Assembly: GCA_044223005.1 (NCBI GenBank)
Contig: JBGAML010000001.1
Location: forward strand, 96,001 to 160,000
Direction of reading: 5' to 3'
DNA length: 64,000 nucleotides
Source: Candidatus Eiseniibacteriota bacterium
GTDB taxonomy: Bacteria > Eisenbacteria > RBG-16-71-46
In this document: piece by piece, positions 9,766 through 63,946 of the stretch
How positions within the stretch are numbered: position 1 is the stretch's first letter
Layout of the letters: each line of letters opens with the position of its first letter
Notes under the pieces: generated by a model
What the model was told of the DNA's origin: nothing
Databases searched by the model: none
Seen by the model: only the letters and a program-made list of their open reading frames with translations
Made by a program: the position numbers and the translations under genes

Positions 9766-11463
9766 TCAGCGCTGCACGGTGACGCTGCGCGTGGCGAGCG
9801 AGCGGCCGTCGACCGTGAGGCGCGCGAAGTAGACGCCGCCGGGAAGACGCCGGCCGGCATCGTCGCGGGTGTCCCACTCGATGCGATGCCCGCCGGCGTC
9901 GAACGCCTCGCGGGACAGCGTCCGCACGCGGCGCCCCATGGCGTCGAAGATCGCGAGGTCCGCGCGTCCCGGCTGCTCGAGCGCGAACGCGAGCGACGCG
10001 CGATCGCTCGCCGGGTTCGGAGCCGCGAGCATGCGCCCGGCCACCGGCGGCGGGATCACTTCGAGCGGTACGCGCTCGCAGTAGAGGTCGTTGGTGCCAC
10101 GCAGGTCGACCCACATCGCGATGCCCACGGTGTCGGGGCCGGACACGATCGCCGACTGGAACTGGCTGCCGCTCGCGGTGCAGATGCCCTCGCCCGTCGC
10201 GGCCCACACCGCGACGCCGAGCGAGTCGAGCCGCTGCGCGTAGATGTCGGTGCCCGCGCCGGTGCGATCGTCCTCCCACGCGAAGAGCGCGCCGCCGAGC
10301 CCGTCCGCCGTCACCGCCGGGAACAGGTGCGTTCCGGGGCCGGCGTACACCGGCTGGCCGGAGGGATCCCACAGCAGCGTGGCCGAGCCGTCGATGCGCT
10401 GGGCGTAGACGTCCGCGCGCGTGCGCGTGTCGGTCCACGCGAGCACGATGCCGCCGCGCGCATCGGTGGCCAGCGCCGGCGCCAGCTGGTCCGCACCGTT
10501 CGTGCACGCGGCGACCCCGTTCGCGGGCGCGGTCAGGAACCCGAGGCCGCTGACGCGCTGCGCCCACACCGCGAACGCCGGACCCCGCAGGTCCTGCCAC
10601 GCGATCCATGCGCCGCCCGCGCTGTCCGCGACGGCGAGCGGATGGAACTGGTCACCGTCCGCCGTGCACACGGGCAGGCCGTCGGTGGCGAAGAACGCCT
10701 GGCCCTCGGGACCCACGTGCTGCACGAGCACGTCGAGCCCGGCCGGGTCCTGCTGCGACCACGCGACGAGCGCGCCACCCGCGAAGTCCGGGACGATCGC
10801 GGGCTCGTACTGCGCGGCGCTCGAACTGCTGACCGGAACGCCGTCGAGCGCCCAGCGCGGCGCACCGGCCTCCGGCTCGAGCCGCTGCGCGTAGATGCGC
10901 GGGCCGTCGCGGTAATCCTCCCACGCGATCACGACGCCCGCGGGCGAGGCGCCCGTCGTGTCGGTCGCGATCACGGGCATGCCCTGCTGGCCCACCACCG
11001 TGCAGACGGGGACGCCGTTGAATGCCCACACGGGCGTGCCCGTGGAGTCGACGCGCTGCGCGTACACGTCGCCCGCCGGGTCCGTGCGGAAGTCGCGCCA
11101 CGCGACGATCACGCCGCCCGCGCCGTCGGAAACCAGGATCGGCTGCTCCTGCTTGTTCGCGCCGCCGCAGGTGAGCACGCCTTCGGTGTGCCAGAGCACC
11201 GCGCCCGACGCGCTCACGTGCTGCACGTAGATGTCCGAGAGCACGAAGCGCGTGTCGGTCCACGCCGTGAACATGCCGCCGGCGCCGTCGCTGATCGCGT
11301 TCCGGTAGTTCTGCGAGCCGGTGGCCTTGCACACGGGCACGTTCACCGTCGGCCCGGGCCACTGCGCGCGCGCGGGCATGGCGGCGCCCGCGAGCAGGAA
11401 CGCGAGAAGCGCGGCCACTCGCCCCCCTCGGGCGAACGCGATGCGGAACGGATGTCGGTGCAC
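9766..11463 (-). CDS. Secreted beta-repeat protein with C-terminal FlgD/T9SS-CTD-like domain
   Basis: Signal peptide ending ARA-Q. Repeated SDGAGG..AWxDxR..DIYAQR units. C-terminal APNP...IFDAMGRRVRTL...WDTRDDAGRRLPGGVYF. Start position is approximate. Confidence 0.85.
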   Translation of the reverse strand: MHRHPFRIAFARGGRVAALLAFLLAGAAMPARAQWPGPTVNVPVCKATGSQNYRNAISDGAGGMFTAWTDTRFVLSDIYVQHVSASGAVLWHTEGVLTCGGANKQEQPILVSDGAGGVIVAWRDFRTDPAGDVYAQRVDSTGTPVWAFNGVPVCTVVGQQGMPVIATDTTGASPAGVVIAWEDYRDGPRIYAQRLEPEAGAPRWALDGVPVSSSSAAQYEPAIVPDFAGGALVAWSQQDPAGLDVLVQHVGPEGQAFFATDGLPVCTADGDQFHPLAVADSAGGAWIAWQDLRGPAFAVWAQRVSGLGFLTAPANGVAACTNGADQLAPALATDARGGIVLAWTDTRTRADVYAQRIDGSATLLWDPSGQPVYAGPGTHLFPAVTADGLGGALFAWEDDRTGAGTDIYAQRLDSLGVAVWAATGEGICTASGSQFQSAIVSGPDTVGIAMWVDLRGTNDLYCERVPLEVIPPPVAGRMLAAPNPASDRASLAFALEQPGRADLAIFDAMGRRVRTLSREAFDAGGHRIEWDTRDDAGRRLPGGVYFARLTVDGRSLATRSVTVQR

Positions 11464-11589
11464 GGGAGTCGGGCTCTCCGGGAGGACGCGGGCGCAGGGA
11501 CGCCCCGCGCCGGCAAATCGTCCCTGCCCCGGATGGTGCTTGTCAACGGTGGGCTCGCGCCCCTGCGATCCGGCGGGTAACCTGCGGCC

Positions 11590-13053
11590 ATGCCGCTCGC
11601 TCCCGCCGTTCTCGCCGAACTCGAGGCCCTGCTCGGCCCCGGCGGCGTGCTGGCCGGCCGCACGGACCGCTTCACCTACGAGGCCGATGCGCTGGTGCTC
11701 GAGCGGCACTCGCCGGACGTGGTCGCGTTGCCGCGCTCGACCGACGAGGTCGCCGCGGTGGTGCGCTGGGCCGCGGCGCGCGGGCTCGCGGTGACCCCGC
11801 GCGGAGCGGGCACCGGCCTCGCGGGCGGTTGCACCTGCGAGCAGGGCGGCGTGGCGCTCTCGCTCAACCGCATGGATCGCGTGCTGGCGGTCGACGCGGA
11901 GCGGATGTTCGCCTGGGTGCAGCCCGGGGTCGTGAACCTCTGGCTCTCGCAGCAGCTCGCGCCGAGCGGGCTGCATTTCGCGCCCGACCCGGCGTCGCAG
12001 CAGGTGAGCACGATCGGCGGCAACGTCGCGACCAACGCCGGCGGTCCGCACTGCCTCAAGTACGGCGTGACGCTGAACCACGTGCTCGGCATCACGGTCG
12101 TGCTCGCGGACGGCACCGCGGTCACGCTGGGCGGCGACGCGTGCGACGCGCCGGACTTCGACCTCGCGGCGGTCGTCACGGGCAGCGAAGGCACGCTCGC
12201 GATCGTCACCGAGATCTGCGTCCGCCTCCTGCCGGTGCCCGAAGCCGTGAAGACGCTCCTCTTCGACTTCAGGACGATCGAGGACGCGTGCGTCACCGTG
12301 TCGCGCGTGATCGCCGAGGGCATCGTGCCCGCGGCGATGGAGATCATGGACCGGCACACGGTGGAGCTGGTCGAGGCGTGGCTGCACCTGGGCCTGCCGA
12401 CCGACGCGGCCGCGGTCCTGCTGATCGAGGTCGACGGCCCCGCCACGGCGCTGCCGGGGCAGGCCGAGCGTATCGCCGCGATCGCGCGCGAGCAGCACGC
12501 GCGCTCCGAGCGCGTGGCGCGCGACGAGGCCGAGCGGGTGCAGCTCTGGCGCGGCCGCAAGTCGTCGTTCGGCGCCTACGGCCGCTCGGCGAGCGGCTTC
12601 TACATCATGGATGGCGTCGTGCCGCGCACGCGGCTGGCGGAGGCGCTGACCAACATCTACGCGTTCGCGGCGGCGCGCGGACTGCACGCGGGCAACGTGT
12701 TCCACGCCGGCGACGGCAACCTGCACCCGCACGTGCTGTTCGACGCGAACTCGCCGGAGCAGCAGCAGGCGGCGCTCGAGGTCTCGCACGAGATCCTGCG
12801 CATGTGCATCCGGTTCGGCGGCACGATCTCGGGCGAGCACGGCGTCGGGATCGAGAAGCGCCCGATGATGTCCGAGCTCTTCACGCCCGCCGATCTCGAC
12901 GCGATGGACCGGCTGCGCGGCGCGTTCGATTCCGCGCGGCGGCTCAACCCGGGCAAGGTGCTCCCCGGTGGCGGCGGCTGCGGCGAGGCGCACGCGCCCG
13001 CGCAGCTGGGCGGCATGACCGTGCGCGACGACGTCCCGGGAGCGTGGATATGA
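11590..13053 (+). CDS. glcD: Glycolate oxidase subunit GlcD (FAD-linked oxidase)
   Basis: PRGAGTGLAGG, PDPAS, HCLKYGVT, HAGDGNLHP and GEHGVG motifs. Confidence 0.9.
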   Translation: MPLAPAVLAELEALLGPGGVLAGRTDRFTYEADALVLERHSPDVVALPRSTDEVAAVVRWAAARGLAVTPRGAGTGLAGGCTCEQGGVALSLNRMDRVLAVDAERMFAWVQPGVVNLWLSQQLAPSGLHFAPDPASQQVSTIGGNVATNAGGPHCLKYGVTLNHVLGITVVLADGTAVTLGGDACDAPDFDLAAVVTGSEGTLAIVTEICVRLLPVPEAVKTLLFDFRTIEDACVTVSRVIAEGIVPAAMEIMDRHTVELVEAWLHLGLPTDAAAVLLIEVDGPATALPGQAERIAAIAREQHARSERVARDEAERVQLWRGRKSSFGAYGRSASGFYIMDGVVPRTRLAEALTNIYAFAAARGLHAGNVFHAGDGNLHPHVLFDANSPEQQQAALEVSHEILRMCIRFGGTISGEHGVGIEKRPMMSELFTPADLDAMDRLRGAFDSARRLNPGKVLPGGGGCGEAHAPAQLGGMTVRDDVPGAWI

Positions 13054-14270
13054 GCCCGCTCGCGCTGCCCGCGGACCGCACGCGCGACACGGCCGCATAC
13101 GCGATCGGCGGCGTCCGCCCCGCGCAGGCCGCGCGCCCCGCGACGCCGGAGGAAGCCGTCGCGGTGGTGGACGGGTGCGCGCGCGCGCGGCTCGCACTCG
13201 TGCCGTGGGGTGGCGGCACGGCGCTCGCCCACGCGCCGGCACCGGAGCGCTACGACGTCGCGCTCGACCTGACGGGCCTCGCGCGCGTGGTGCGCCACGA
13301 GCGCGACGACTTCACCGTCACCGCCGAGTGCGGCGTGACGCTCGCGGCGCTCGGCGCGCTGCTCGAGCGGCACGGCCAGGAGCTGCCGCTCGAGGCTCCG
13401 GCGCCGGAGCGCGCGACGTTCGGCGGCGTGCTGGCCGCGAACGCGAGCGGCGCCCGACGGCTCGCGCTGGGCGCTCCGCGCGACCGGATCCTCGGCGCGC
13501 GGTTCGTGCTGGGCGACGGCACGTTCGCGCGCACGGGCGGGCGCGTGGTGAAGAACGTGGCCGGGCACGCCGTGCACCGACTGCTGGTCGGCGCGCGCGG
13601 AGGACTCGGCATCCTGCTCGAAGCGAGCGTGAAGCTCCTGCCGCAGCCACCCGCGCGGGCGGCGGTCGTGCACGGCGTGGACGCCGGCACGCTGGCCGAC
13701 CGGGCGCGCTGGGCGACGTTCCCGCGCCGCGAGCCGGCGGTTCTCACCGTCGTCGGCGCCGCCGCCACCGCGGGCGCGCCGGCACTCGCGACCGGTGCGC
13801 CGTTCACCACCGTCACGGGCTTCGAGGGCGACCCCGCATGGGTCGACGCGTCGGTCGCGTTCGCGACGCAGGCGCTGGGCGCGCCGGTGCGCGTGCTGCG
13901 CGACGCGGAGGTGCCCGCGCTCTGGCGCGCGCTCGCGGCGCTCCCGGCGACCCGCGGCCCGCGGTTCGTCTTCACGACCGCGAGCAACACGCCCACGGCG
14001 CTGCGGGCGATCGCCCGCGACGACGACGCGGATTCGCTCGTCTTCCACGCGCCCGCGGGGCGCCTGTCGCTCTCGCCGGCACCGGACGCCGCGGCCGCTC
14101 GCATGGCGGCGCTGGCGGCCGCCGGCTTCACGCCGATCGCGGTGCAGGGCGTGGACGCGGCTCTGCCCGCGGCGCCCGCCGCGGTGCGGGCACTGCGCGA
14201 GCGGATCGCGGAAGCGCTCGATCCGGCGGACACGCTCGCCTTCACCGCCCGCTGGCGCGCCGGGCGCTGA
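13050..14270 (+). CDS. glcE: Glycolate oxidase FAD-binding subunit GlcE-like
   Basis: ATGA overlap with glcD. GGGT, RDRILG and GGRVVKNVAG motifs. Confidence 0.8.
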   Translation: MSPLALPADRTRDTAAYAIGGVRPAQAARPATPEEAVAVVDGCARARLALVPWGGGTALAHAPAPERYDVALDLTGLARVVRHERDDFTVTAECGVTLAALGALLERHGQELPLEAPAPERATFGGVLAANASGARRLALGAPRDRILGARFVLGDGTFARTGGRVVKNVAGHAVHRLLVGARGGLGILLEASVKLLPQPPARAAVVHGVDAGTLADRARWATFPRREPAVLTVVGAAATAGAPALATGAPFTTVTGFEGDPAWVDASVAFATQALGAPVRVLRDAEVPALWRALAALPATRGPRFVFTTASNTPTALRAIARDDDADSLVFHAPAGRLSLSPAPDAAAARMAALAAAGFTPIAVQGVDAALPAAPAAVRALRERIAEALDPADTLAFTARWRAGR

Positions 14271-14347
14271 CGGCGCGTCCGCCGCGGTGTACGGTGGCGC
14301 CGCCGTCGCGGCGCGCGCCGCGGCACGCTTCCACCGGAGGTGAAGCC

Positions 14348-15340
14348 ATGCGCATCGTCCTCGCCCTGCTGCTCACCACCGCGTGCGCCACGCCCGCCGT
14401 CGCGGCCCGCCGCGACCCGCTCGCGCACACGTACTCGATCGTCGCGCGCGACCCGCGCACCGGCGAGCTCGGCGTGGCGGTGCAGTCGCACTACTTCTCG
14501 GTCGGGCCGGTCGTGCCGTGGGCCGAAGCCGGCGTCGGCGCCGTGGCGACGCAGTCGCTGGTGCTGGTCGACTACGGCCCGCAGGGGCTCGAGCTCATGC
14601 GCAAGGGCTTCACCGCGAAGCAGGCGCTCGATTCGCTGCTCGCCGCCGATCCGCACCACGAAGGCCGCCAGGTCGCGATGGTCGACGCGCACGGTGGTGT
14701 CGCCGCGTGGACGGGACCGGCGTGCATTCCCGACGCGGGCGACGCGCAGGGCGAACAGTTCAGCTGCCAGGCGAACCTGATGGCCAACGCGACGGTATGG
14801 CCGGCGATGAAGACCGTGTTCGAGCACGCGGAGGGCGACCTCGCCGAGCGCATGATGCAGGCGCTCGAGGCCGCCGAGCGCGCGGGCGGCGACATCCGTG
14901 GGCGGCAGTCGGCGGCGATCCTCGTGGTGAAGGCCACCGGCTCGGGCAAGCCGTGGAACGACGTGGTCGTGAACCTGCGCGTCGAGGACCATCCGCAGCC
15001 GCTCGTCGAACTGCGCCGGCTGCTGCGGCTGCGCCGGGCCTACAACCTCGAGGACCAGGGCGACGCGTTCACGTCGGAACAGCAGCCCGAGAAGGCCGCG
15101 CAGGCCTACGCCGAGGCGATGCGGCTCGCGCCCGACGTGGTGGAGCTGCAGTTCTGGGCGGCGTCGACCATGTACCAGAACGGGCGCAAGGAAGAAGCGC
15201 GCGCGCTCTTCCGCAAGGTGTTCGCCCGCGAGCCGCGCTGGGCGCCGCTGATCCCGCGGCTCGCAAAGGTGGGCCTGTTCCCGAACGACCCCGCGCAGAT
15301 CGACGACGTCGTGAAGCTGGCCCCGCCGGCGAAGCGGTAA
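14348..15340 (+). CDS. Secreted DUF1028 (Ntn-hydrolase-like) protein with TPR tail
   Basis: Signal peptide. HTYSIVARD, GVAVQS, GGDIRGRQSAA and LRVEDHPQP motifs. Confidence 0.85.
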   Translation: MRIVLALLLTTACATPAVAARRDPLAHTYSIVARDPRTGELGVAVQSHYFSVGPVVPWAEAGVGAVATQSLVLVDYGPQGLELMRKGFTAKQALDSLLAADPHHEGRQVAMVDAHGGVAAWTGPACIPDAGDAQGEQFSCQANLMANATVWPAMKTVFEHAEGDLAERMMQALEAAERAGGDIRGRQSAAILVVKATGSGKPWNDVVVNLRVEDHPQPLVELRRLLRLRRAYNLEDQGDAFTSEQQPEKAAQAYAEAMRLAPDVVELQFWAASTMYQNGRKEEARALFRKVFAREPRWAPLIPRLAKVGLFPNDPAQIDDVVKLAPPAKR

Positions 15341-15352
15341 CACCGCGAACGA

Positions 15353-15387
15353 CTCGGGGCCCGCACCACGAGGGTGCGGGCCCCGAG
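15353..15387. terminator. 15-bp perfect hairpin between convergent genes
   Basis: CTCGGGGCCCGCACC-acgag-GGTGCGGGCCCCGAG. Confidence 0.7.
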
Positions 15388-15417
15388 CACCTGCGAACGT
15401 CGGGATCGGGCCGGCGC

Positions 15418-16584
15418 TCAGCCGCCGATCGCGCTGCGCGCGCCCTGGTCGCGCCAGGGTCCGCGTTCGCGGTCGGTCACGCCGCGCAGCTCCTCGAGCA
15501 GCGCCGTGACCGACGCCGCGCGGGAGTCCCACGTGTGGCCGGCACGCACGGTCTCGCGGGCGCGTGCGCCCAGCCGGGTGCGCTGCGGCGCGTCGGCGAC
15601 GAGGTCCGTGAGGGCCTGCGCCAGTTCGGCGCCGTCGCTCGGCGACACCAGCCGCGCGTCGTATCCCGGCGTGGCGACTCCGCGCACGCCGTCCGTGGCC
15701 GGCGCCACGACCGCGCGCTGCAGCGCCATCGACTCGAGCAGCGCGAGCGGCGTGCCACCGTCGTCGCCCCCGCCGGTCACGACGACGTCGCAGAGCGCGA
15801 GGTGCGCCGGGACCGCGCGGTGCGGCACGCGGCCGCAGAGCACGAGCCGAGTGTGCGTGCGATCGGCGACACGCAGCGCGGGGTTGCGCTCCTCGCCGTC
15901 GCCGATCACGACGAGACGCGCGCCCTGCTCGGACGGCAGCGTGGCGACGGCCTCGACGAGGGGCAGCAGCCCGCTGTCCGCGTGCAGGTCGCCGAAGAAG
16001 CCGACGCGCACGCCACACGCCGGCAGGCAGAGCTGCTCGACGGCGCGCTGGACCAGTTCGGGCGCGGGCGCTTCGAGGAACTCGGCGCCGGCGGCGTTGG
16101 TCACCACGGCCACCGGCCGGTCGCCGTCCATCAACTCGCGCAGGCGGCTCCCCGAGTTGGGGCTCGTCGTGATCGCCCCGCGCGTCAGCGCCAGCGCTTC
16201 GGGCAGCGCGCCGCGCACGGAGGTGCTCGTGGCGAGACCGCCCGCGCTCAGGTCGCCCTCGATGTCGTACACGTGCGGGATGCCGGCTTCGCCAGCGGCG
16301 CGCACGCCCTCGAGCGAGCCCGGCATCAGGCGCTCGAGCACCACGTCGGGTTCGATCTGGGAGAAATGCCAGTCGATTTCGCGAACGCTCACGGGCATGC
16401 GCAGCGTGCGCACTCGGACGCCCGACTCCGCTGCCGCCGCATCCGCATCGGCGCCGGCGCAGAGCATGGTCACGTCGTGGCCCGCGCGCGCGAGGGCGAG
16501 CGCAAGACCGCGCAGGCGCACGGGCCAGCGGCGGCCGTCGCCGGTGATCAGCTCGGGATCCGTACAGAGCAGCGCGATGCGCAT
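15418..16584 (-). CDS. Glycosyltransferase family 4
   Basis: MRIALL, GHDVT, LVVIGDG, GRVPH and PLALLESMA motifs of the GT-B fold. Confidence 0.85.
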   Translation of the reverse strand: MRIALLCTDPELITGDGRRWPVRLRGLALALARAGHDVTMLCAGADADAAAAESGVRVRTLRMPVSVREIDWHFSQIEPDVVLERLMPGSLEGVRAAGEAGIPHVYDIEGDLSAGGLATSTSVRGALPEALALTRGAITTSPNSGSRLRELMDGDRPVAVVTNAAGAEFLEAPAPELVQRAVEQLCLPACGVRVGFFGDLHADSGLLPLVEAVATLPSEQGARLVVIGDGEERNPALRVADRTHTRLVLCGRVPHRAVPAHLALCDVVVTGGGDDGGTPLALLESMALQRAVVAPATDGVRGVATPGYDARLVSPSDGAELAQALTDLVADAPQRTRLGARARETVRAGHTWDSRAASVTALLEELRGVTDRERGPWRDQGARSAIGG

Positions 16585-16797
16585 GCGCGCCTCTCGAGGG
16601 ATTTGGGTCACGGAGGGGAACGAGGGACCTGTCCAGAACCGTGAAGCAGGCGCACTTCCGCCGCTTCTCATCCTCAGAGGTGGGGCGGGCGTCCCGTTGG
16701 ATACATCCTCCCCCGGTGGCGCCCGGCGCGGGGCCGTCGCCGGGGGCCGAACGAGCCCGCACGTGCGCAACGACAACGACTTCGCTAAGGTTTCGGC

Positions 16798-17487
16798 ATG
16801 ACACCCCCTCGCCCCGCCGGCGGCCTCGACCCCGAACGGGACGCCCGGCTCGTGGAGTCCTGCCTCGCGGGAGACGAGCGCGCGTGGAACCAGCTGGTCC
16901 GGCGGCACGAGCGGCTCGTGTACGCCGTCGCCCGCGCATGGCGGCTGGAGGAGGACGATCTCGCCGACGTCTTCCAGGAGGTCTTCGCGGCCCTGGTCCG
17001 CGGCCTGCCCCGGCTGCGTGACGGCCGCTCGCTCGTGCGCTGGCTCTCGAGCACGACCGATCGCGTCGCGCGCACGCGCGCGCTGCGGCGGCGGCGCGAG
17101 CTGGCGTTGCGGCAACAGGACGAAACGGTGCTCGAGCGCCTGCCCGGTGGCGACGAGCCCGTGGGCGCCGATCTCGAGCGGCTCGAGCACCAGGCTGCGG
17201 TGCGACTCGGCATGGACACGTTGCCGGATCGCTGCCGGCGGCTGCTGCACGCGCTCTACTACGAGGATCCCGCGCCCGCGTACGCCGATCTCGCACGGCG
17301 GCTGGGAGTTCCCGTGGGCTCGCTCGGTCCGACGCGGGCGCGCTGCATGGAGAAGCTGCGCGCAGCACTCGCGAGATGGGCCGGCGGCGGTATCACGGAG
17401 GCGGAAGGCGGCACCTCTACTGCCGCGAGCGGGACCGGCTCCGAACCCGGCGACGATCCCGCGCACGAGTCCACGGAGCACCCATGA
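16798..17487 (+). CDS. ECF RNA polymerase sigma factor
   Basis: Region 2: GDERAWNQLVRRH..DVFQEVF..WL. Region 4: LPDRCRRLL..YADLARRLGVPVGSLGPTRARC. Confidence 0.9.
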   Translation: MTPPRPAGGLDPERDARLVESCLAGDERAWNQLVRRHERLVYAVARAWRLEEDDLADVFQEVFAALVRGLPRLRDGRSLVRWLSSTTDRVARTRALRRRRELALRQQDETVLERLPGGDEPVGADLERLEHQAAVRLGMDTLPDRCRRLLHALYYEDPAPAYADLARRLGVPVGSLGPTRARCMEKLRAALARWAGGGITEAEGGTSTAASGTGSEPGDDPAHESTEHP

Positions 17488-18098
17488 GCCCATTCGCCCG
17501 ATCCCGCGATCGACACCTCGACCTGCGCACGGTCCTCGACTACCTGGACCAGCGCCTCGACGCCTCGTCCCGGCGTGCCGCCGACGACCATCTCGGCCGG
17601 CCGTGCGAGACGTGCCGGGAGCAGGTGCGAGAGGTCGGCGAACTCCTCGAAGCGATGCGCCGCGACCGCACCGAGGACGTGCCGGAGCGGCTGCACGCGC
17701 TCGCGGTCGCGGCGTTCGCGCCGCGGACCGCGCCGGCGCCGGCGAAGCGCCTCGCGGAGATCCTCGCCGAGCTCGTATTCGACTCGCTGCGCTCGCCGCT
17801 GCCCGCGACCGCACGGCGTTCGGTCGGCGAGGCCCGCCGCGTGCGCTTCCGTGCGGGCGACGCGACGCTCGATCTCGAGCTCGAGCCCGAGGGCGCGACG
17901 ACGCAGTCGCTGCGCGGCCGGCTCGAGGCCGAGGACGCCGCGCTCTGGACGCTCGAGTTCCGCGCCGGCACCGAGCGCGCGCGCGTCCACCCCGACGCCA
18001 CGGGCGCGTTCGTCGTCGACCGCCTGCCCCTGGGTGCGCTGGAAGCGCACCTCGAAGGTCCGCTCGGACGATTCCGGCTGCCGCCGCTCGAGCCCTGA
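17484..18098 (+). CDS. Soluble zinc-finger anti-sigma-like protein
   Basis: ATGA overlap with the sigma gene. HLGRPCETC is a ZAS-like motif. C-terminal beta-rich domain (LVFDS..RRVRF..LDLEL). No TM segment. Confidence 0.75.
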   Translation: MSPFARSRDRHLDLRTVLDYLDQRLDASSRRAADDHLGRPCETCREQVREVGELLEAMRRDRTEDVPERLHALAVAAFAPRTAPAPAKRLAEILAELVFDSLRSPLPATARRSVGEARRVRFRAGDATLDLELEPEGATTQSLRGRLEAEDAALWTLEFRAGTERARVHPDATGAFVVDRLPLGALEAHLEGPLGRFRLPPLEP

Positions 18099-20890
18099 TG
18101 ACCGCCGCCGGCCTGCTCGAGCGCATCGAGTCGCTGCGCCGGTCGGAACCCGCCCGGGCGCTCGCCGAACTCGAAGCGGGATTCGGCGCCGCCACGCGCG
18201 CCGCCGATCCCGCCGAACGCGGCGCCCTGTGGCGCACACGCGCGCACGTGCTGCGGGCGCTGACGCGGACGCGGGAGGCCGCGACCTGCTATCGCCGCGC
18301 GGCCGCGTGGTACGGCCGGGCGCGCGATGCTCGCGAGCAGGGCCGCTGCGACATCGGGCTCGTCGACGCGCTCATGTACCTCGGCCGCTACGGCGAGGCG
18401 CGCCGCGCCGCGGCCCACGGCCGGCGGCTGCTCGCGCGCGCCGGCGACCGGCCGGCGCTCGCGCGGCTGCTCAACAACGAAGGCAATCTCTGGCACCGGC
18501 TCGACCTGCCCCAGCGCGCGCTCGAATGCTACCGCGACGCGGTGCGCGCACTGGAGAAGGCCGGTGACGCGCGCAGCGCGCGCATGATCGGCACCAACGT
18601 CGGCAACTGCCTCTCGCTGCTCGGCCGCTGCGACGAAGCGCGCGCGCACTACCGCGCCGCGCGTCGCGCGCACGCCGCCGCGGGCGCCGAATCCGAAGCG
18701 CTGAACGCGGCCTACAACCTCGCCTACCTCGACTTCCTCGAGCATCGCGACGAAGCGGCGCTCGCCGGGCTCGCGGGCGTGCGTGAGGACGCGCTGGCCC
18801 GCGGCATCCCGTCGCTCGCGGCACTGGCTCGGCTCGACCGCGCCGAGATCTTCCTGCGCATGGGCGCGCACGAGGAGGCGCTCGAAGAGGCTTCGGCGGC
18901 GATCGAGGCGTGCGCGGCGATCGGCCTGCGCTACGAAGAAGGCAAGGCGGAGCTGTTCCGCGCGCTCGCGCGCTTCCGGCTGGGCGCGCCGGCCGCCGCA
19001 CGGCGCGGGATCGAGCTCGCGCTCGAGCGCTTCGACGCGGAAGGCAACCGCGTCTGGACCGGCGAAGCGCTGCTCGGGCTCGCCACGGTGTGGTGGAAGG
19101 ACGGCAACCCGCTCGCGGCGGCGGCACTGCTCGCGGCGGCACGGCGGCGGTTCGCCGAAGCGGGCGATCGCGAACGCCTCGCGTGCGCCGCGATGCTCGA
19201 ATCGCGCGCGCGTCTCGCGTCCGGCGACGCGCGCGGTGCCGCGCGCTGCCTGCGGCTCGCGCCGGCGGACGGCGGCTCGTCGCGACTGCGTCACCTGCGG
19301 CTCGCGGCGAGCGCGGCGCTGGCCCGGCACGCGGGCGACGTCGCGCGCGCGCGCCGGCTGCTCGGGCGCGCGGCCGACACGGCCGAGCGTCTCGCGGCGC
19401 GCATCCTCGACGAACAGTGGCGCGCGTCGTTCTGGGGCGAGTGGGGCTGGCCGCACCGCGAGCGCGCGGCGCTCGAACTGGCCGAGGGCCGCTTCGAGGC
19501 CGCGTTCGACGCGCTGGAGGCCGGGCGCGGGCGCGCGCTCGTCGGCCGCGCCACGCGCCGCTCCGCACGCGGCGCCGCGCTGCCGGCGTCGGTGCGCCGC
19601 TGGGCGGCCACGCGCCAGGCGCGCGAGCGCGTGCGCCGGGCGGGCGAGACCGTGGCCGGCGCGGCGCCGGGAGCCGACGAGCGCGAACCGCGCGAAGCCC
19701 TGGAGACGCGGGCGCCGCGGGCGGTCCGCGCCGCGCAGCTCCGCCGCACGCTGCCTCCGCGCGCACTGCTGCTCGACTATCTCGTGCACGACGGCGTGCT
19801 GGGCGCGCTGGCGGTGGCGCGCGAGGGCCTCGACGGCCGCGCGGCGCTCGTCTCCGAGGCGCAGCTCTCGCAGATGGTGCACGCGCTGCTCTTCGCACTC
19901 CGCGGCGCGGCGTACGTTCCCACCGATCGCCGCAACGACGACCCCGGTCTCGATCGCGCGCTCGCCGAGCTCGCCGGCCTCGTGCTCTGGCCGCTGCTCG
20001 CCGGACGCGAACCCGGTGCGCTCGCGATCGCACCGGCCGGTCCCCTCGCGCGGGTCCCGTGGGCGGCGCTGCCGATGCCCGACGGACGCACGTTGTGCGA
20101 GACGTGCTCCACCGTCGTGGTGCCGGGCCTCCGGCTCGGCCTCGCGCAGCGCGCGCCCTCGCGACCCGCCGCACCGCACCCGCTCGTGATCGCCGCCGAC
20201 GCGGGCGAGCTCGCCGCGGTGGGCCCCGAGACCGACGCGGTGCTCGCGGCGTTCCCGGGCGCGCGCCTGCTCGCGGGCGCCGACGCGACCGCCGAGCGCT
20301 TCCGCGCGCTGGCGCCCGACGCGCCGTGGATCCATTTTGCCGGCCACGGCGGCTGGCGCGCCGACGCGCCGCACGAGTCGGGCCTGCGCCTGTACGATCG
20401 CTGGCTGCTGGCCGGCGAGCTCGCCGACCTCCGGCTGCGCGCGAACTGGGTCACGCTCTCGGCGTGCCACACGGCGCGCGCGCTGGTGCATCCGGGCGAA
20501 GAATGGTTCGGGCTCGCCCGGTCGTTCCTGCTCGCCGGGGCCGGCGCGGTCGTGGCGGCCCAGTGGGACGTGGAGGATGCGCCCACGAGCGAGCTGATGG
20601 CCGGGCTCTATCGCCGGCTCGCCGACGGCACGCCGCTCGCCGGCGCGCTGGCCGCAGCGCAAGCGGCCCGGCGCGCGGCTGGAGCGCACCCGCTCGACTG
20701 GGCGGGGTTCGTGGCCCTCGGTGGCCCGGCGCTCCTGGGCCGAAGTGGCCCCGACGCTGGGGGAAATGACGGCGCCGGCAGGCGTTTCGCTCGGAACCGC
20801 GCGGTCGTGAAGCGTCATCGCGAGGAGGAACGCTCATCGCGGGCGTTCGACAAAAAACGTGAGAAGGTCTTCGCCGATAGGCTAGACTGA
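18098..20890 (+). CDS. TPR-CHAT (caspase-like) protease
   Basis: TGATG overlap with the upstream gene. N-terminal TPR-like helices (LLNNEGNL, TNVGNCL, YNLAYL). Catalytic HFAGHG and LSAC motifs, plus HPLDWAGF. Confidence 0.9.
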   Translation: MTAAGLLERIESLRRSEPARALAELEAGFGAATRAADPAERGALWRTRAHVLRALTRTREAATCYRRAAAWYGRARDAREQGRCDIGLVDALMYLGRYGEARRAAAHGRRLLARAGDRPALARLLNNEGNLWHRLDLPQRALECYRDAVRALEKAGDARSARMIGTNVGNCLSLLGRCDEARAHYRAARRAHAAAGAESEALNAAYNLAYLDFLEHRDEAALAGLAGVREDALARGIPSLAALARLDRAEIFLRMGAHEEALEEASAAIEACAAIGLRYEEGKAELFRALARFRLGAPAAARRGIELALERFDAEGNRVWTGEALLGLATVWWKDGNPLAAAALLAAARRRFAEAGDRERLACAAMLESRARLASGDARGAARCLRLAPADGGSSRLRHLRLAASAALARHAGDVARARRLLGRAADTAERLAARILDEQWRASFWGEWGWPHRERAALELAEGRFEAAFDALEAGRGRALVGRATRRSARGAALPASVRRWAATRQARERVRRAGETVAGAAPGADEREPREALETRAPRAVRAAQLRRTLPPRALLLDYLVHDGVLGALAVAREGLDGRAALVSEAQLSQMVHALLFALRGAAYVPTDRRNDDPGLDRALAELAGLVLWPLLAGREPGALAIAPAGPLARVPWAALPMPDGRTLCETCSTVVVPGLRLGLAQRAPSRPAAPHPLVIAADAGELAAVGPETDAVLAAFPGARLLAGADATAERFRALAPDAPWIHFAGHGGWRADAPHESGLRLYDRWLLAGELADLRLRANWVTLSACHTARALVHPGEEWFGLARSFLLAGAGAVVAAQWDVEDAPTSELMAGLYRRLADGTPLAGALAAAQAARRAAGAHPLDWAGFVALGGPALLGRSGPDAGGNDGAGRRFARNRAVVKRHREEERSSRAFDKKREKVFADRLD

Positions 20891-20913
20891 ACGGCCTTCG
20901 GAGGAACTCGGCC

Positions 20914-22236
20914 ATGAGAGCCCGTCCCGCCCACATCTCGATATCGCTCCTCGCCCTGGCGGCCATCGCCTCGCTCGCGGTTTCGTGCGCGCGAGACCTC
21001 CCGACGGCGGCGCCCCGCAGCGTCGAAACGCGTGCGGGAGCCCGTCACCTGACCGGCCAGGACATCTCGCAGGAAATCGTCGTCACGCTGGCGCCGGGGG
21101 CCCACGCCGTCGACGTCGCTTCGACTTACGGCGCCGTGCTGCTGCTCGCGGACGACCAGCGCCGCGTCGCGGTCCTCCACGCGGGCCCCGCCGACGATGC
21201 GACCGATCTGCGCACCCGGCTCGCTTCCGACCCGCGGATCACGACGACCGAGTCGAACCGCTACCTGCAGCCGGCGGAATCGCGCCAGAAGAGTTTCGCG
21301 TTCGACGACGGTCTCGGCACGCCGCAGACGTACAACGCGCAGCCGGCCGCGGAATCCATGCACCTGGGTGCGGCGCACCTGACGAGCCTCGGCGACGGCG
21401 TCCGGGTCGCGATCCTCGACACGGGCATCGACGCCACGCACCCGTACCTCGCCGGCCGCGTGGTCGCCCAGCACGATTTCATCGATGACGACGCCGATGC
21501 GTCCGAGCACCCGCTCGGGCTCGACACCAACGGTGATGGCGAGATCGACGAAGCGTTCGGTCACGGCACGCACATTGCGGGCATCGTCGGCCTCACGGCT
21601 CCCGCGGCCCAGCTGGTCGTCGGCCGCGTGCTCGATTCGGACGGCATCGGCGACGTGGTCACGGTCGCCCAGGGCATCCGCTGGGCCGTCTCGCAGGGCG
21701 CGCAGGTCATCAACCTGAGCCTCGGGGCGCTCGAAGAGAGCGATGCGATCGAGGACGCGATCGAGGATGCGCAGCAGGCCGGCGTCGTCGTCGTGGCGGC
21801 GGTCGGCAACTGGGGTTCCGAAACGCCGCGCGAGTTCCCGGCCAGCATGCCGGGCGTGGCCGCGATCGCCGCGTGCGATGCCTACGGCGTCCCGGCCGAA
21901 TGGACGTCGTACGAGCCGTACGTGGCCCTGAGCGCGCCGGGCGTGGCGATCCGCAGCACCTACCCCGGCGGCGGCTACCGCCTCTGGAGCGGCACGTCGA
22001 TGTCGGTGCCCTTCGTCGCGGGCACGGCAGCGCTCCTGCGGCAGGTCCACCCCGACTGGTCGGCGTGGCAGGTCATGATCCGCATCCGCGGCTCCGTGGC
22101 GCCGCTCCAGTACGTGCCGGCCACTGCCGTCGGCAAGCTCGGTTCGGGCATGCTCGACGTGGGCGCCGCGCTGGCTCCGGACGCGGTCGCCAACGAGGAC
22201 GACGGCGGCGGCGACGTGACGCCCGTGCGCCACTGA
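20914..22236 (+). CDS. S8 subtilisin-family serine protease, lipoprotein
   Basis: Lipobox LAVSC. Catalytic triad motifs ILDTG, GHGTHIAG and SGTSMS. Confidence 0.92.
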   Translation: MRARPAHISISLLALAAIASLAVSCARDLPTAAPRSVETRAGARHLTGQDISQEIVVTLAPGAHAVDVASTYGAVLLLADDQRRVAVLHAGPADDATDLRTRLASDPRITTTESNRYLQPAESRQKSFAFDDGLGTPQTYNAQPAAESMHLGAAHLTSLGDGVRVAILDTGIDATHPYLAGRVVAQHDFIDDDADASEHPLGLDTNGDGEIDEAFGHGTHIAGIVGLTAPAAQLVVGRVLDSDGIGDVVTVAQGIRWAVSQGAQVINLSLGALEESDAIEDAIEDAQQAGVVVVAAVGNWGSETPREFPASMPGVAAIAACDAYGVPAEWTSYEPYVALSAPGVAIRSTYPGGGYRLWSGTSMSVPFVAGTAALLRQVHPDWSAWQVMIRIRGSVAPLQYVPATAVGKLGSGMLDVGAALAPDAVANEDDGGGDVTPVRH

Positions 22237-22250
22237 CGATCACGACGACC

Positions 22251-22290
22251 CGAACGGGCCCGCGGATCCTGCGATCCGCGGGCCCGTTCG
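22251..22290 (+). terminator. 18-bp perfect hairpin after the S8 gene
   Basis: CGAACGGGCCCGCGGATC-ctgc-GATCCGCGGGCCCGTTCG. Confidence 0.75.
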
Positions 22291-22368
22291 CTTGGGTGCG
22301 ATCGGAGGCTCGCACTATGCTGCGGCCGCGCAACCCTCATCCCCACCACCCGCCCGGCGAGGAACGGC

Positions 22369-23319
22369 ATGAACACGAACCCGATCGCATCCCGTCAGCG
22401 CCGGCGCCGCCTCGCGGGCGCGGCTGCACTCCTGCTTGCGGTCGCGGCCGGCTGCTCGCGGCGCGAAGCGAGCGCCCCGGCGTCGGCGACGATGGCCATC
22501 GAAGCCCCCGCACCGTCGCGCGCCGCTGCGCCGTCGGGTGTCGCCGACGAGGCCGTCGCCGCTGGTGATCCGGGCGCCCCGGGCCCCGCGGCCGTCCGGC
22601 GGCAGCTCGTGCGCAACGCGTCTCTGGACCTCGTCGTCGCGGACGTGGATTCCGCCGCCGCGCGGATCGAGACCATCGCAGTCGCCGAAGGCGGCTGGCT
22701 CGCCGACGAGAACGGCCGGCGCGTCGACGGCTTCCCGAGCCGGTCGATGACGCTGCGCGTGCCCGCGGCCCGGCTCGATCCGTTCCTCGCCCGCGTGAAG
22801 GCGCTCGCGCAGCGGGTCGAGGGCCAGTCGATCACGACCGAGGACGTGACCGACCAGGCGGTGGACCTCGAGGCCCGCCTGCGCACGCTGCGCGCGACCG
22901 AGGAGGAGCTGCTCGGGCTCCTTCGCGAGACACGCGCGCGCGGCGGCAAGGCCGAGGACGTGATGGCGGTCTACCGCGAACTCACCGGCATCCGCACGCA
23001 GGTCGAACAGCTCGACGCCCAGCGGCGCACGCTCGCCGGCCAGGTCGCGATGTCCGCCGTGACGGTGTCGCTCACCGCGGACGCGGCGACGCGGCCGATC
23101 GCCGGCGCGCCATGGAGCCCGGGCCGCACGGTGCGCAACAGCCTCCGCACCCTGCTCGGCGGCCTGCGCGGCCTCGGGGACGCGGCCATCTTCGCGGTCG
23201 TCGTGCTGCTGCCGCTGGGGCTGCTGCTCGCGTTCGCGGCGTGGCTCGTGGCGCGCGTGCTGCGCGCGACGCTCGGCCGGCTGTTCCGCAAGCCCGGCGA
23301 CGCGGGTCCGCGGAGCTGA
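22369..23319 (+). CDS. DUF4349-family lipoprotein
   Basis: Lipobox AAGC. TLRVPA and EDVTDQAVDLEARL motifs. C-terminal TM. Confidence 0.85.
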   Translation: MNTNPIASRQRRRRLAGAAALLLAVAAGCSRREASAPASATMAIEAPAPSRAAAPSGVADEAVAAGDPGAPGPAAVRRQLVRNASLDLVVADVDSAAARIETIAVAEGGWLADENGRRVDGFPSRSMTLRVPAARLDPFLARVKALAQRVEGQSITTEDVTDQAVDLEARLRTLRATEEELLGLLRETRARGGKAEDVMAVYRELTGIRTQVEQLDAQRRTLAGQVAMSAVTVSLTADAATRPIAGAPWSPGRTVRNSLRTLLGGLRGLGDAAIFAVVVLLPLGLLLAFAAWLVARVLRATLGRLFRKPGDAGPRS

Positions 23320-27968: not shown

Positions 27969-29260
27969 GCGCGCCGCGCCTCTCGCGCCGCGCGGTGGCG
28001 GCGCTCTTCCTCGCGCGCCAGCGGCTGGACCGCCCGCGCGGCCGGCGGCTCGGGGCGAGGGCGCTGCGCGACTTCGCCGAGGCGACGTGCGGCGTGCAGA
28101 TCGACAGCGTCAACGTGGTCGATCGCGCGCACCACCTGTCGCTGTGGAGCCGCTTCGGGCCCTACGACCGGCGCAGGCTCGAGAAGCTGCTCTACCGCGA
28201 GCGCGTGCTGTTCGAGTACCTCTCGCACGTCGCGTGCTTCGTCGCGACGAGCGACCTGCCGATCTGGAAGTCGATGATGCAGGCGCTGCCCGAGCGCTGG
28301 CGGCAGCGCTGGGGCGACGACCCGCCCGCGACGCTCTGCGACCAGGTCGAGGCCGAGATCGCCGCGCACGGTACCCGCGGCAACGCCGACTTCGAGCGCC
28401 CGGGCGGTGGCCGCGCCGGCGGCTGGTGGAGCTGGAAGCCGGCCCAGCACGCGCTCGACTACCTGTGGAAGTGCGGCCGCATCGCGGTCCACTCGCGCGA
28501 GAACTTCCAGAAGCGCTACGCCGTCATGGACCGCGTCCTGCCCGCCTGGCGCGACACCGAGGCCGTGCCGTACGCGTCGCTGCCGCGCGTGCGCGTGCTG
28601 CGCTCGCTCGCGGCGATGGGCGCCGCGACGCGTGCCGACCTCGCGGGCTACTGGACGTGGCCGCGCCTGCCCGCGGCGACGATCGGCGGCGCGCTTCGCG
28701 ACCTCGTGGACACGGGCGAGGTCGTGGAGCTGCGCGCCGACTTCGACGATGCGCCCTACTACGCGCGCGCCGAGGACCTGCCCGCGCTGGCGCGCGCCGC
28801 GCGCGTCCGCCGGCCCTCGCGCGGCACCACGCTGCTCTCGCCCTTCGACTCGCTGCTCTGGCACCGCGACCGCGTCGAGCGGCTCTGGGGCTTTCGTTAT
28901 CGCATCGAGATCTACGTGCCCGGCCACCAGCGCACGCACGGCTACTACACGCTGCCGCTGCTGCACGAGGGCATGTTCGTCGGCCGCGTCGACCTCAAGA
29001 CGCATCGCGACGCGGGCGTGCTCGAGGCGCGGCACGTGCATCTCGAGCCGTGGCTCGGCCGGGCCGCGGACCCGCCCGGCGTGTGCTGGGGCGCGCCCCC
29101 GGACACCGCCGGCGTCCTCGCAGGGCTCGCCGACGCGCTCCACTCGCTCGCGCGCTTCGTCGGCGCGGAGCAGGTCCGCGTGGGGCGCGTGACGCCGGCC
29201 GCCGCGAAGCCGGCGCTGGCCCGCGCCCTGCGGGCCGCGGGGAGCGGTTCCGCCCGCTGA
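27965..29260 (+). CDS. ycaQ: YcaQ/AlkZ-family (HTH_42) DNA crosslink glycosylase
   Basis: VQIDSVNVV (QxD motif), LLSPFD, YRIEIYVP and GYYTLP motifs. Confidence 0.8.
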   Translation: MSAPRLSRRAVAALFLARQRLDRPRGRRLGARALRDFAEATCGVQIDSVNVVDRAHHLSLWSRFGPYDRRRLEKLLYRERVLFEYLSHVACFVATSDLPIWKSMMQALPERWRQRWGDDPPATLCDQVEAEIAAHGTRGNADFERPGGGRAGGWWSWKPAQHALDYLWKCGRIAVHSRENFQKRYAVMDRVLPAWRDTEAVPYASLPRVRVLRSLAAMGAATRADLAGYWTWPRLPAATIGGALRDLVDTGEVVELRADFDDAPYYARAEDLPALARAARVRRPSRGTTLLSPFDSLLWHRDRVERLWGFRYRIEIYVPGHQRTHGYYTLPLLHEGMFVGRVDLKTHRDAGVLEARHVHLEPWLGRAADPPGVCWGAPPDTAGVLAGLADALHSLARFVGAEQVRVGRVTPAAAKPALARALRAAGSGSAR

Positions 29261-29376
29261 AACCGCCCGCGCGGCCGCCGTCCGCCGCAGGGGAATCGCT
29301 GCTGCGCCGCCGGGGGCCCAGCCAGTACAATTGCCCCGCTCGAATCCTGCCTCCATCCCGAACGAGGGACCCCCGC

Positions 29377-62980: not shown

Positions 62981-63946
62981 GTGTCGACGCCGCACGAGGT
63001 GATCATCCTGGGCTCCGGCCCCGCCGGTTACACCGCCGCGATCTACGCCGCGCGCGCCAACCTGAAGCCGCTCATGTTCTCCGGCCTGCAGCCGGGCGGC
63101 CAGCTCACGATCACGAGCGAGGTCGAGAACTACCCCGCGTTCCCGGACGGCATCCTCGGCCCCGAGTTGATGGAGAAGTTCCGCGCGCAGGCCGAGCGCT
63201 TCGGCACGCAGATCGTGGACGCCGAGGTCGAGAGGGTCGACTTCTCGCAGCGCCCGTTCCGCGTCTGGTCGGATGGCAAGGAGTACGTCGCGAACAGCGT
63301 GATCGTGGCCACCGGCGCGAGCGCGATGCTGCTGGGCCTGCCGAGCGAGCAGCGATTCATGGGCTTCGGGGTCAGCGCGTGCGCGACCTGCGACGGGTTC
63401 TTCTTCAAGGGCAGGCGCGTCATCGTGGTCGGCGGCGGCGACACGGCGCTGGAAGAGGCGACCTACCTCACGCGCTTCTGCGCCGAGGTCGTGATCGTGC
63501 ACCGGCGTGACCAGTTCCGGGGCTCGAAGATCATGCAGGAGCGCGCGCTCGCGAACGAGAAGATCCGCGTGATCTGGAACGCCGAGATCGCCGAGGTGAT
63601 CGGCGAGGCCGAGAAGAAGGTGACGGGCGTGAAGCTGCGCGACACGAAGACGGGCGCGATCACCGAGATGCCGATCGACGGCGTGTTCGTCGCGATCGGG
63701 CACAAGCCGAACACGGCGTTCCTGCAGGGCCAGCTCGCGATGGATTCGCGCGGCTACGTGCAGGTGAAGCCGGGCACGTCGTACACGAGCGTCGAGGGCG
63801 TCTTCGCCGCCGGCGACGTGCACGACGCGGTCTACCGCCAGGCGATCACCGCGGCCGGCAGCGGCTGCATGGCCGCGATCGACGCGGAGCGCTGGCTCGA
63901 GGCGCAGGCGCACGCGGCGCACGCCGCGGGCGCGGCGCGGCACTGA
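62981..63946 (+). CDS. trxB: Thioredoxin reductase
   Basis: GSGPAG, GGQL, CATCDG, GGGDTA, HRRD and RQAITAAG motifs. Confidence 0.95.
   Translation: MSTPHEVIILGSGPAGYTAAIYAARANLKPLMFSGLQPGGQLTITSEVENYPAFPDGILGPELMEKFRAQAERFGTQIVDAEVERVDFSQRPFRVWSDGKEYVANSVIVATGASAMLLGLPSEQRFMGFGVSACATCDGFFFKGRRVIVVGGGDTALEEATYLTRFCAEVVIVHRRDQFRGSKIMQERALANEKIRVIWNAEIAEVIGEAEKKVTGVKLRDTKTGAITEMPIDGVFVAIGHKPNTAFLQGQLAMDSRGYVQVKPGTSYTSVEGVFAAGDVHDAVYRQAITAAGSGCMAAIDAERWLEAQAHAAHAAGAARH

Follow-up and report, generated by a model that had tools for sequence, protein, structure and literature searches.

A conserved ECF sigma factor cassette of Eisenbacteria with a predicted zinc-type anti-sigma factor, a TPR-CHAT protease and a candidate promoter motif

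When the gene of a sigma factor of the extracytoplasmic function (ECF) class is followed directly by genes for a small soluble protein, a caspase-like protease and an exported subtilase, do the four products form one regulatory circuit, and which of them would decide when the sigma factor is free? This question is raised by a locus in a 64 000-nt stretch of DNA from Candidatus Eiseniibacteriota bacterium (assembly GCA_044223005.1, contig JBGAML010000001.1, positions 96 001–160 000 of the forward strand; below, the window). Open reading frames and Pfam matches place on its + strand, in this order, an ECF sigma factor gene, a gene for a 204-aa protein, a gene for a protease that joins tetratricopeptide repeats to a CHAT domain (TPR-CHAT) and a gene for a subtilase of the S8 family. 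A sequence-only reading of the locus had described a CRISPR-independent proteolytic switch in which the CHAT protease cuts an anti-sigma factor. The reading that we have come to favour, with moderate confidence, is that of an ECF54-type cassette, in which the 204-aa protein holds the sigma factor, its release is gated by CHAT and the sigma factor reads promoters of the form GTATCA-N16-CACCTCT.

As the G+C content of the window is ~74%, genes were called by third-position G+C and then checked with Pfam. The sigma stop codon overlaps the ATG of the 204-aa protein as ATGA, the end of the latter gene overlaps the TPR-CHAT start as TGATG, and 23 nt lie between the CHAT stop and the S8 start. Past the S8 gene comes a hairpin with a perfect 18-bp stem (arms 22251–22268 and 22273–22290); none of 200 shuffles folded equally well. 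It has no T-tract and is absent from the listing of the consensus terminator scan; it is probably the operon end. The four genes, both overlaps, the gap and the hairpin were all found where the sequence-only reading had put them. A consensus scan for promoters and terminators found nothing in the region 16400–22500.

To collect related loci, one genome per species was scanned and gene content was determined by tblastn; this yielded 15 loci. In 15 of 15 the anti-sigma-like gene has the sigma gene ahead of it, and in 15 of 15 a CHAT gene behind it, the latter cut by the contig end in five; an S8 gene follows in all 10 loci whose contig reaches far enough, with a second tandem S8 gene in two. The order is kept in each of the 15 loci, which come from other genomes; the arrangement is far beyond chance, and the four genes are a conserved unit, in support of the module described in the sequence-only reading. 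Identity to the window proteins is 48–64% for the anti-sigma-like protein, ~60–70% for the sigma factor, 63–73% for CHAT (eight complete orthologues) and 46–56% for S8; therefore, the order has survived considerable divergence. A glycosyltransferase gene of the GT4 type is present in 13 of the 15 loci, adjoining the sigma gene in eight and lying behind two further glycosyltransferase genes in five. In two loci the CHAT gene is split between frames (L020:2590–5320 and L031:6004–9290), in L031 together with the anti-sigma gene; these splits are frameshifts or assembly errors.

How widely is the cassette distributed? A search with the 204-aa protein returned 98 homologue clusters of nearly uniform length (~203 aa), the named ones being metagenome-assembled genomes (MAGs) of Candidatus Eisenbacteria, and the best 120 matches to the sigma factor were all Eisenbacteria-type orthologues. 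Of 61 genomes sampled evenly over the phylum, 15 contain the anti-sigma family, as do two of five genomes of the organism's own genus; the cassette unit was seen in eight further genomes of the sample. As the distribution is patchy, the cassette is accessory. One genome (G004, contig 8, 9000–27000, locus L068) carries two complete sigma/anti-sigma/CHAT/S8 cassettes in tandem; in the second, N16-CACCTCT is kept and the −35 element reads GTACGA instead of GTATCA, which would fit a pair of duplicated sigma factors on the way to different promoter preferences. For metagenomes, the cross-phylum alignment of the 204-aa family was too diverse to be scanned with, and a single planctomycetal member was used instead, giving three weak loci; one of them (L037) has a sigma gene, an anti-sigma-like gene and the start of a CHAT gene, lacks the promoter motif described below and is uninformative.

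The 204-aa protein carries the motif H36-LGRP-C41-ET-C44, i.e. H-x4-C-x2-C, the full set being H-x24-H-x4-C-x2-C, and the highest mean hydropathy over 19 residues is 0.85, which indicates no membrane helix. In an alignment of 27 homologues H11, H36, G38, P40, C41 and C44 are invariant, as is RR..G.ARR at residues 111–119. Weak matches to zf-HC2 were found in 12 of these close homologues (best E 0.045) and to CarboxypepD_reg in nine (best E 0.0041). A profile search of 1.84 billion representatives extended the family to 2085 relatives at E ≤ 0.001, with 340 at E ≤ 1e-10; among the 150 relatives listed, the majority have ~200 aa and align with the greater part of the profile, the others being shorter pieces. 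Of ten clusters that were looked up, those with a name belong to Planctomycetota, Zixibacteria and unclassified MAGs, and two are named carboxypeptidase regulatory-like domain proteins. Across 49 diverse members, down to 20–30% identity, H36, L37, C41, C44, D100 and F176 are invariant and H11, P67, A74, R111 and G145 are kept in ≥90%; His-Cys spacings of both x3 and x4 occur among them. Of 21 distant members, six match zf-HC2 at E ≤ 0.01 (two above the curated cut-off) and 11 match CarboxypepD_reg at the same threshold (one above the cut-off); eight match nothing.

Matches to solved anti-sigma factors, whether by structure or by sequence, were weak and yet recurred. A profile search of the PDB gave four matches at E ≤ 10, and two of these are zinc anti-sigma factors: 3hug_B (E 0.13), which we take to be RslA of M. 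tuberculosis (the record title reads 'probable conserved membrane protein'), and RsiW (E 0.81). The AlphaFold2 (AF2) model, with a mean predicted local distance difference test score (pLDDT) of 75, is helical as far as residue 95, has a low-confidence linker at residues 78–114 and shows a beta-sandwich, modelled with confidence, at 118–202; the conserved linker motifs are LVFDS...A.R and RRSVGEARR. When this model was used in a Foldseek search, ChrR, whose C-terminal domain is a cupin, stood at ranks 4, 7 and 10 (E 0.0065–0.014). Our reading of these features and of the model is that a soluble anti-sigma domain of the zinc type is fused here to a CarboxypepD_reg-like domain, and we predict that the protein binds the sigma factor. 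The earlier description of a soluble H-x4-C-x2-C anti-sigma-like protein holds for the hallmarks of the zinc domain, H11, H36, C41 and C44 being invariant among the close homologues and two of the 21 distant members passing the zf-HC2 cut-off; it is not backed by Pfam for the window's own protein, which stays below the thresholds.

The TPR-CHAT protein has its CHAT domain at residues 623–875, a TPR_12 match (E 8.5e-9) and the motifs WIHFAGHG and VTLSAC. Over the whole length of nine orthologues the mean column identity is 75%; the TPR half is as conserved as the protease half, and WIHFAGHG and WVTLSAC are invariant, so that the claim of an intact His/Cys dyad is confirmed, with H750 and C790 as the presumed catalytic residues. 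Judged by hydropathy, the protein has no signal peptide. The AF2 model is confident for the TPR half alone, where ~22 helices fill residues 1–430. In a Foldseek search with the CHAT model DdvA came first (8rw5, E 8.3e-9), then human separase, and Csx29 took ranks 29 and 42; TM-scores were low (0.2–0.3), and such matches are an architectural likeness with no close kinship.

Which promoters would the sigma factor read? Alignment of the regions before the sigma gene brought out the motif GTATC[AC]-N16-CACCTCT, with some CACCTGT or CACTTGT variants. In a relaxed search it was found on the − strand before the sigma gene in 14 of the 14 loci holding that region, and in each of the 15 related loci it stands on the + strand 75–105 nt ahead of the anti-sigma start; the + copy of the window lies 66 nt before the anti-sigma ATG. 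Two loci (L029 and L031) have a third copy directly before the S8 gene, and no copy was found before the sigma gene itself, i.e. directed towards it. All 29 cassette sites of the related loci have GTATCA(G) at −35, and the −10 element reads CACCTCT.

Both strands of the organism's own 4.52-Mb genome contain four strict matches in total, against ~0.06 expected from base composition by our arithmetic: the two cassette copies, one site on contig 9 and one on contig 11. In the 61 phylum genomes there were 34 strict matches and five for a reversed control; 31 of the 34 fell in 12 of the 15 genomes that have the anti-sigma family, and three in the 46 genomes without it. The motif plainly co-occurs with the cassette (related genomes are not independent, and no p-value is given). 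A position-matrix scan gave three sites above 22 bits, and none in each of three shuffles. Motif matches inside an rpoC-like gene (L038) and at three places with no cassette nearby (L039, L052 and L053) were judged to be chance.

The genes behind the motif outline a small predicted regulon. Behind the divergent copy lies a GT4 gene or, in its place, a GT28-like gene with two GT4 genes after it; in the window the likely start of the glycosyltransferase is ATG 16584 (MRIALL...) behind GAGAGG, and we predict from the position of the motif that this gene is a target of the cassette sigma factor. The contig 9 site lies 56 nt before the gene of a second secreted S8 protease, which adjoins another CHAT gene. 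Extra copies in relatives precede genes for secreted CarboxypepD_reg proteins (two genomes), sortilin/BNR propellers (two), a CsgG-like protein and alpha/beta hydrolases. Because the motif faces anti-sigma-CHAT-S8 and tracks the cassette across the 61 genomes, the proteases are predicted to be outputs and part of a feedback loop. The contig 11 site (63572–63600, − strand) faces a gene-less stretch of ~240 nt (L055:1255–1494, − strand; z −5.86 against shuffles) that has no Rfam match and may be a sigma-dependent small RNA.

The S8 protein itself has the triad motifs DTGI, HGTH and GTSMS and a signal peptide ending in LAVSC. HGTH and GTSM[SA] are present in 13 of 13 S8 sequences and D[TS]G[IV] in nine, the Asp motif of the other four being unread; a Cys-containing, lipobox-like end of the signal peptide is found in 13 of 13, followed by R.LPTA in most. 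By these motifs the S8 protease is an exported lipoprotein. It was also considered as a mycosin, which was rejected: the mycosin model scored 174 bits, below the cut-off of 278.75. The sequence-only reading had offered this protease as output or as source of the activating peptide. The role of output is supported by the sigma-type promoter facing anti-sigma-CHAT-S8 and by the further copies before S8 genes; direct action of S8 on the anti-sigma factor is not, as the protease is exported and the other three proteins are cytoplasmic.

In the sigma factor, the TIGR02937 match covers residues 29–191, with sigma-2 and sigma-4 regions only, and 13 aligned orthologues have a mean identity of 67%. A low-complexity tail starts at about residue 195 and is encoded by the internal promoter region, the invariant G198-I199 being encoded by GGTATC of the motif. 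The tail is missing in six of the 13 orthologues, the short form having 203–206 aa; the + copy of the motif lies inside the coding tail of the long form and spans the stop codon and gap in the short one. The sigma start has no Shine-Dalgarno sequence, and a full sigma-70 promoter before the gene was not found in the consensus scan. A TAnnnT hexamer was seen by eye 6–12 nt before the start in related loci L020–L034; because of this hexamer and the lack of a Shine-Dalgarno sequence, the sequence suggests an mRNA that is leaderless or nearly so. Cysteines C22, C146 and C183 are invariant in 13 of 13 aligned orthologues, which is unusual for ECF sigma factors. The genome encodes 29 sigma factors. 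The features of the locus are collected in Table 1.

Table 1. Positions of the cassette genes and associated elements in the window
Feature	Position	Strand	Basis
GT4-type glycosyltransferase gene	15418..16584	−	Pfam Glyco_trans_1_4 E 9e-20, Glycos_transf_1 E 3e-17
Sigma-type promoter motif GTATCC-N16-CACCTCT, towards the glycosyltransferase gene	16676..16704	−	Strict match
TAAGGT, −10-like hexamer	16786..16791	+	6 nt before sigma ATG; read from sequence
ECF sigma factor, 229 aa	16798..17487	+	Sigma70_r2 E 2e-9; TIGR02937 sigma70-ECF E 1.4e-18
Internal motif GTATCA-N16-CACCTCT, towards anti-sigma-CHAT-S8	17390..17418	+	Strict match
Soluble anti-sigma-like protein, 204 aa	17484..18098	+	Zinc-type helical domain, conserved linker, CarboxypepD_reg-like beta-sandwich
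TPR-CHAT caspase-like protease, 930 aa	18098..20890	+	Pfam CHAT E 1.5e-45
S8 subtilase lipoprotein, 440 aa	20914..22236	+	Peptidase_S8 E 3.5e-43
Hairpin 3′ of S8, 18-bp stem and 4-nt loop	22251..22290	+	Folding z-score −5.26

Is such a cassette already known? A search of a full-text library found work on CRISPR type III, on DdvA and two ECF surveys, and no experimental study of the cassette. In the survey entries for group ECF54 the genomic context of the ECF sigma factor gene consists of genes for a CarboxypepD_reg protein at +1, for a subtilase and for a TPR-CHAT protein; the group is given there as 100% Actinobacteria and without an anti-sigma factor, and proteolytic regulation is proposed in a description made by genomics only (PMC8999054; PMC7826278). 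For the target promoter a −35 element GTATCAG and a −10 element CTCC are predicted (PMC7826278 supplement). The cassette of the window likewise has a CarboxypepD_reg-like protein at +1, a subtilase and a TPR-CHAT protein beside the ECF sigma factor, and its −35 element GTATCA(G) equals the GTATCAG of that supplement. It differs from the group as there described in its host, Eisenbacteria, in the zinc anti-sigma-like N-terminal domain of the +1 protein, in an S8 protease that is an exported lipoprotein, and in promoters that lie after the sigma core and divergently rather than before the sigma gene. By gene content and −35 element the cassette is probably of the ECF54 type, ECF54 being the closest catalogued group. 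The gene combination is already in print for ECF54, and the novelty of the earlier claim was overrated; what is new here is the anti-sigma evidence for the +1 protein of the Eisenbacteria family, together with a map of predicted promoters and targets.

Three characterized systems show how such a cassette could work. In Myxococcus xanthus, according to the DdvS/DdvA study (PMC11506125), a zinc-type anti-sigma domain joined with a TPR-CHAT of the separase/craspase type controls an ECF sigma factor, and this is the likeness to the present case. DdvA is described there as a single transmembrane protein with a periplasmic TPR-CHAT and an incomplete active site, whereas here the anti-sigma-like protein and TPR-CHAT are separate and cytoplasmic, with intact dyad motifs, no membrane helix and no signal peptide; the DdvS regulon as reported contains cyclic-oligonucleotide-based anti-phage signalling (CBASS) and CRISPR-Cas, in contrast to the glycosyltransferases and secreted proteins predicted here (PMC11506125).

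The second system is the precedent that the sequence-only reading had cited, and cited correctly: in type III-E CRISPR, Csx29 cleaves Csx30, an inhibitor of an ECF-like sigma factor (PMC10028731). As that article presents this arm of Craspase, the N-terminal part of Csx30 binds the ECF-like CASP-sigma, and the cut falls outside this part, after which the fragment is lost (PMC10028731). A cytoplasmic TPR-CHAT protein and a soluble two-domain inhibitor, putative here, are shared with the cassette. Csx29 is activated by Cas7-11 and target RNA in that account (PMC10028731), whereas here there is no Cas protein and no PADLOC match; its identity to the CHAT protein is 12–14% in Foldseek alignments; and the putative inhibitor here is a zinc-type domain with a beta-sandwich. 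In agreement with the earlier claim, the module has no link to CRISPR: Cas1 was not found in the organism's own genome, whose completeness is 99.3%, and the neighbouring genes include no cas genes.

The third is ChrR, the partner of SigE in Rhodobacter sphaeroides (PDB 2q1z, 2z2s), which is also soluble and combines an N-terminal helical zinc domain (His,His,Cys,Cys) with a C-terminal beta domain. It differs in its H-x3-C-x2-C spacing, compared with H-x4-C-x2-C here, where the second domain is a sandwich and the Foldseek matches are all above E 0.001.

Taken with these precedents, the gene order, conservation, motifs, topology and joint distribution of motif and cassette allow the ECF54-type reading to be spelled out. 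The sigma factor would be expressed from a −10-like element of its own, perhaps as a leaderless transcript, and kept inactive by the soluble cytoplasmic anti-sigma factor, whose N-terminal helical domain would bind zinc through H11, H36, C41 and C44 and is joined by a disordered, conserved linker to the CarboxypepD_reg-like sandwich; sigma binding, like the use of the promoter by this particular sigma factor, is what general knowledge of ECF systems leads us to infer. The TPR solenoid would bind a cue or a partner and thereby make CHAT the signal-gated step. The His750/Cys790 site would then cut the linker of the anti-sigma factor, a candidate site being near the family-wide Arg111 in RRSVGEARR, and the sigma-binding fragment would be lost as with Csx30 in type III-E; both the cleavage and its site are suggested by analogy with Csx29/Csx30/CASP-sigma and DdvA. 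Free sigma factor would drive the anti-sigma, CHAT and S8 genes from the promoter in the 3′ end of its own gene, which would give negative feedback as well as output, along with the divergent glycosyltransferase genes and a few other targets, namely the second secreted S8 protease and, in relatives, other secreted proteins. The sigma factor itself would not be autoregulated, and wiring of this kind would suit a self-limiting pulse.

A further-reaching form of the proposal is more tentative, and we would not yet bet on it: that CHAT, gated by a signal, is the first protease to act on a soluble zinc anti-sigma factor, cutting it at the family-wide Arg of the linker and so destroying the part that binds the sigma factor, in a Cas-free and widespread Craspase-like mechanism; that the anti-sigma factor of ECF54 has been hidden in the CarboxypepD_reg protein; and that the sigma factor induces its inhibitor, the protease and the exported proteases and does not induce itself.

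Several observations weigh against the ECF54-type reading. At the promoter, the −10 element of the cassette, CACCTCT, resembles and yet is not the CTCC given in the ECF54 supplement (PMC7826278); the link of the motif to this sigma factor, rather than to another of the 29, is one of co-occurrence alone; and the contig 9 site scores below 18 bits on the position matrix (we relied on the exact pattern because the matrix included spacer columns). At the anti-sigma factor, the window's protein matches no Pfam family at E ≤ 0.01 and reaches only the RsrA model, with an E-value of 0.0036 that is far below the cut-off in score; the Foldseek search of its model gave no match at E ≤ 0.001; and the zinc motif is one residue longer than the canonical H-x3-C-x2-C. 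The conservation of LVFDS may have another cause than cleavage, namely a fourth helix that binds the sigma factor. At the protease, the CHAT half is poorly modelled by AF2 (pLDDT 40–75), and CHAT, standing behind a sigma-type promoter, could merely be an output.

The last point leads to the alternative that survives best, though we hold it to be unlikely: the zinc anti-sigma domain would itself sense the signal, be it the oxidation of thiols, an electrophile or the loss of its metal, in the manner of RsrA or ChrR, and CHAT and S8 would be regulon members only. It would account for an invariant His/Cys set spaced like that of ChrR, for the presence of ChrR among the Foldseek matches and for the position of anti-sigma, CHAT and S8 behind a sigma-type promoter, where outputs would be expected. 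On the other hand, in 15 of 15 loci CHAT stands immediately behind the anti-sigma gene, in the window the two are coupled in translation, and the solved precedents put TPR-CHAT upstream of sigma release. The other CHAT genes of the genome also speak against CHAT as a mere regulon member. At least eight of the 12 CHAT genes in this 4.5-Mb genome adjoin an ECF sigma gene, and the systems are of differing kinds: five have an exported CHAT and membrane anti-sigma-like partners, two have Ser/Thr kinases and the cassette studied here, with its soluble anti-sigma-like protein, alone is fully cytoplasmic. That CHATs sit with such differing kinds of ECF systems argues for a place of CHAT proteins in the signalling layer.

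Among the sigma-linked CHAT loci, L015–L018 have CHAT, then sigma, then a protein of ~230 aa; L011 has a sigma-like protein, a membrane protein and a CHAT lipoprotein; L012 and L014 have sigma, a Ser/Thr kinase with DUF4384 and CHAT. A signal peptide is present in most of the sigma-linked CHAT proteins of the genome; their small partners carry a single membrane helix around residue 100 and, in several cases, an H-x3-C-x2-C-like motif as well. The set looks like several paralogous 'split DdvA' systems.

It is less probable still that CHAT acts without cutting the anti-sigma factor, either by trimming the sigma factor, as negative control, or through sequestration of the anti-sigma beta-sandwich by the TPR half in a partner switch. 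The separate, well-folded C-terminal domain of the anti-sigma factor could indeed serve as a docking module, the TPR half is as conserved as the protease half, and one subfamily has an unstructured sigma tail to be trimmed. Pure scaffolds, however, do not usually keep an invariant His/Cys dyad with its surrounding motifs, and a tail that is missing in six of 13 aligned orthologues is explained by the promoter encoded there. An anti-phage or abortive-infection module, descended from the signalling arm of type III-E Craspase with loss of the Cas proteins, would fit the architectural likeness to Csx29 (Foldseek ranks 29 and 42), the control of a defence island by DdvA/DdvS as reported (PMC11506125) and the patchy distribution (15 of 61 genomes, two of five in the genus), and we nevertheless regard this defence role, one of those offered by the sequence-only reading, as highly improbable, since sigma, anti-sigma and CHAT have no PADLOC match, Cas1 was not found in the genome, the surrounding genes are those of metabolism and the envelope, with DUF1028 and GT4 syntenic, and glycosyltransferases, subtilases and further secreted proteins make up the predicted targets.

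Outside the cassette, the downstream neighbour of the operon is a DUF4349 gene, and the wider neighbourhood is metabolic, with FAD oxidases, a DUF1028-TPR protein and an alcohol dehydrogenase. The DUF1028-TPR gene (13838–15337, + strand), which encodes DUF1028 fused to TPR repeats, lies just past the glycosyltransferase gene; a DUF1028 match was found upstream in five of the 15 related loci and again in locus L040. A + strand ORF at 15374–16801 was considered as a fifth coupled gene and rejected: it has no Pfam match, and the opposite strand encodes the glycosyltransferase. In this genome many large secreted proteins have a FlgD_ig-like domain at their end, among them those encoded at 9769–11709 (−) and 29083–31977 (+) of the window and in loci L009, L014 and L016, and the second S8 protease; this C-terminus may be a sorting or anchoring domain typical of the lineage.

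In metatranscriptomes, three sludge or wastewater runs yielded short contigs, with 0–1 differences, on parts of anti-sigma, CHAT and S8. These matches are contigs of small share with possible DNA carry-over and without transcript ends, and the fact that sigma was not covered is uninformative.

Bacterial signalling has one of its main routes in ECF sigma factors, among which ECF54 is one of the groups without a known regulator. If the +1 protein is an anti-sigma factor and CHAT its protease, there would be a mechanism for a whole catalogued group and for its relatives in several phyla, and a natural Cas-free counterpart of the sigma arm of Craspase; for synthetic biology it would offer a compact protease-gated transcription switch with a defined promoter. 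The promoter map, with two mapped operon sites and a short genome-wide list of targets, is directly and cheaply testable. For the organisms themselves, which are abundant bacteria of sludge and soil, the cassette would control exported proteases and the sugar chemistry of the cell surface.

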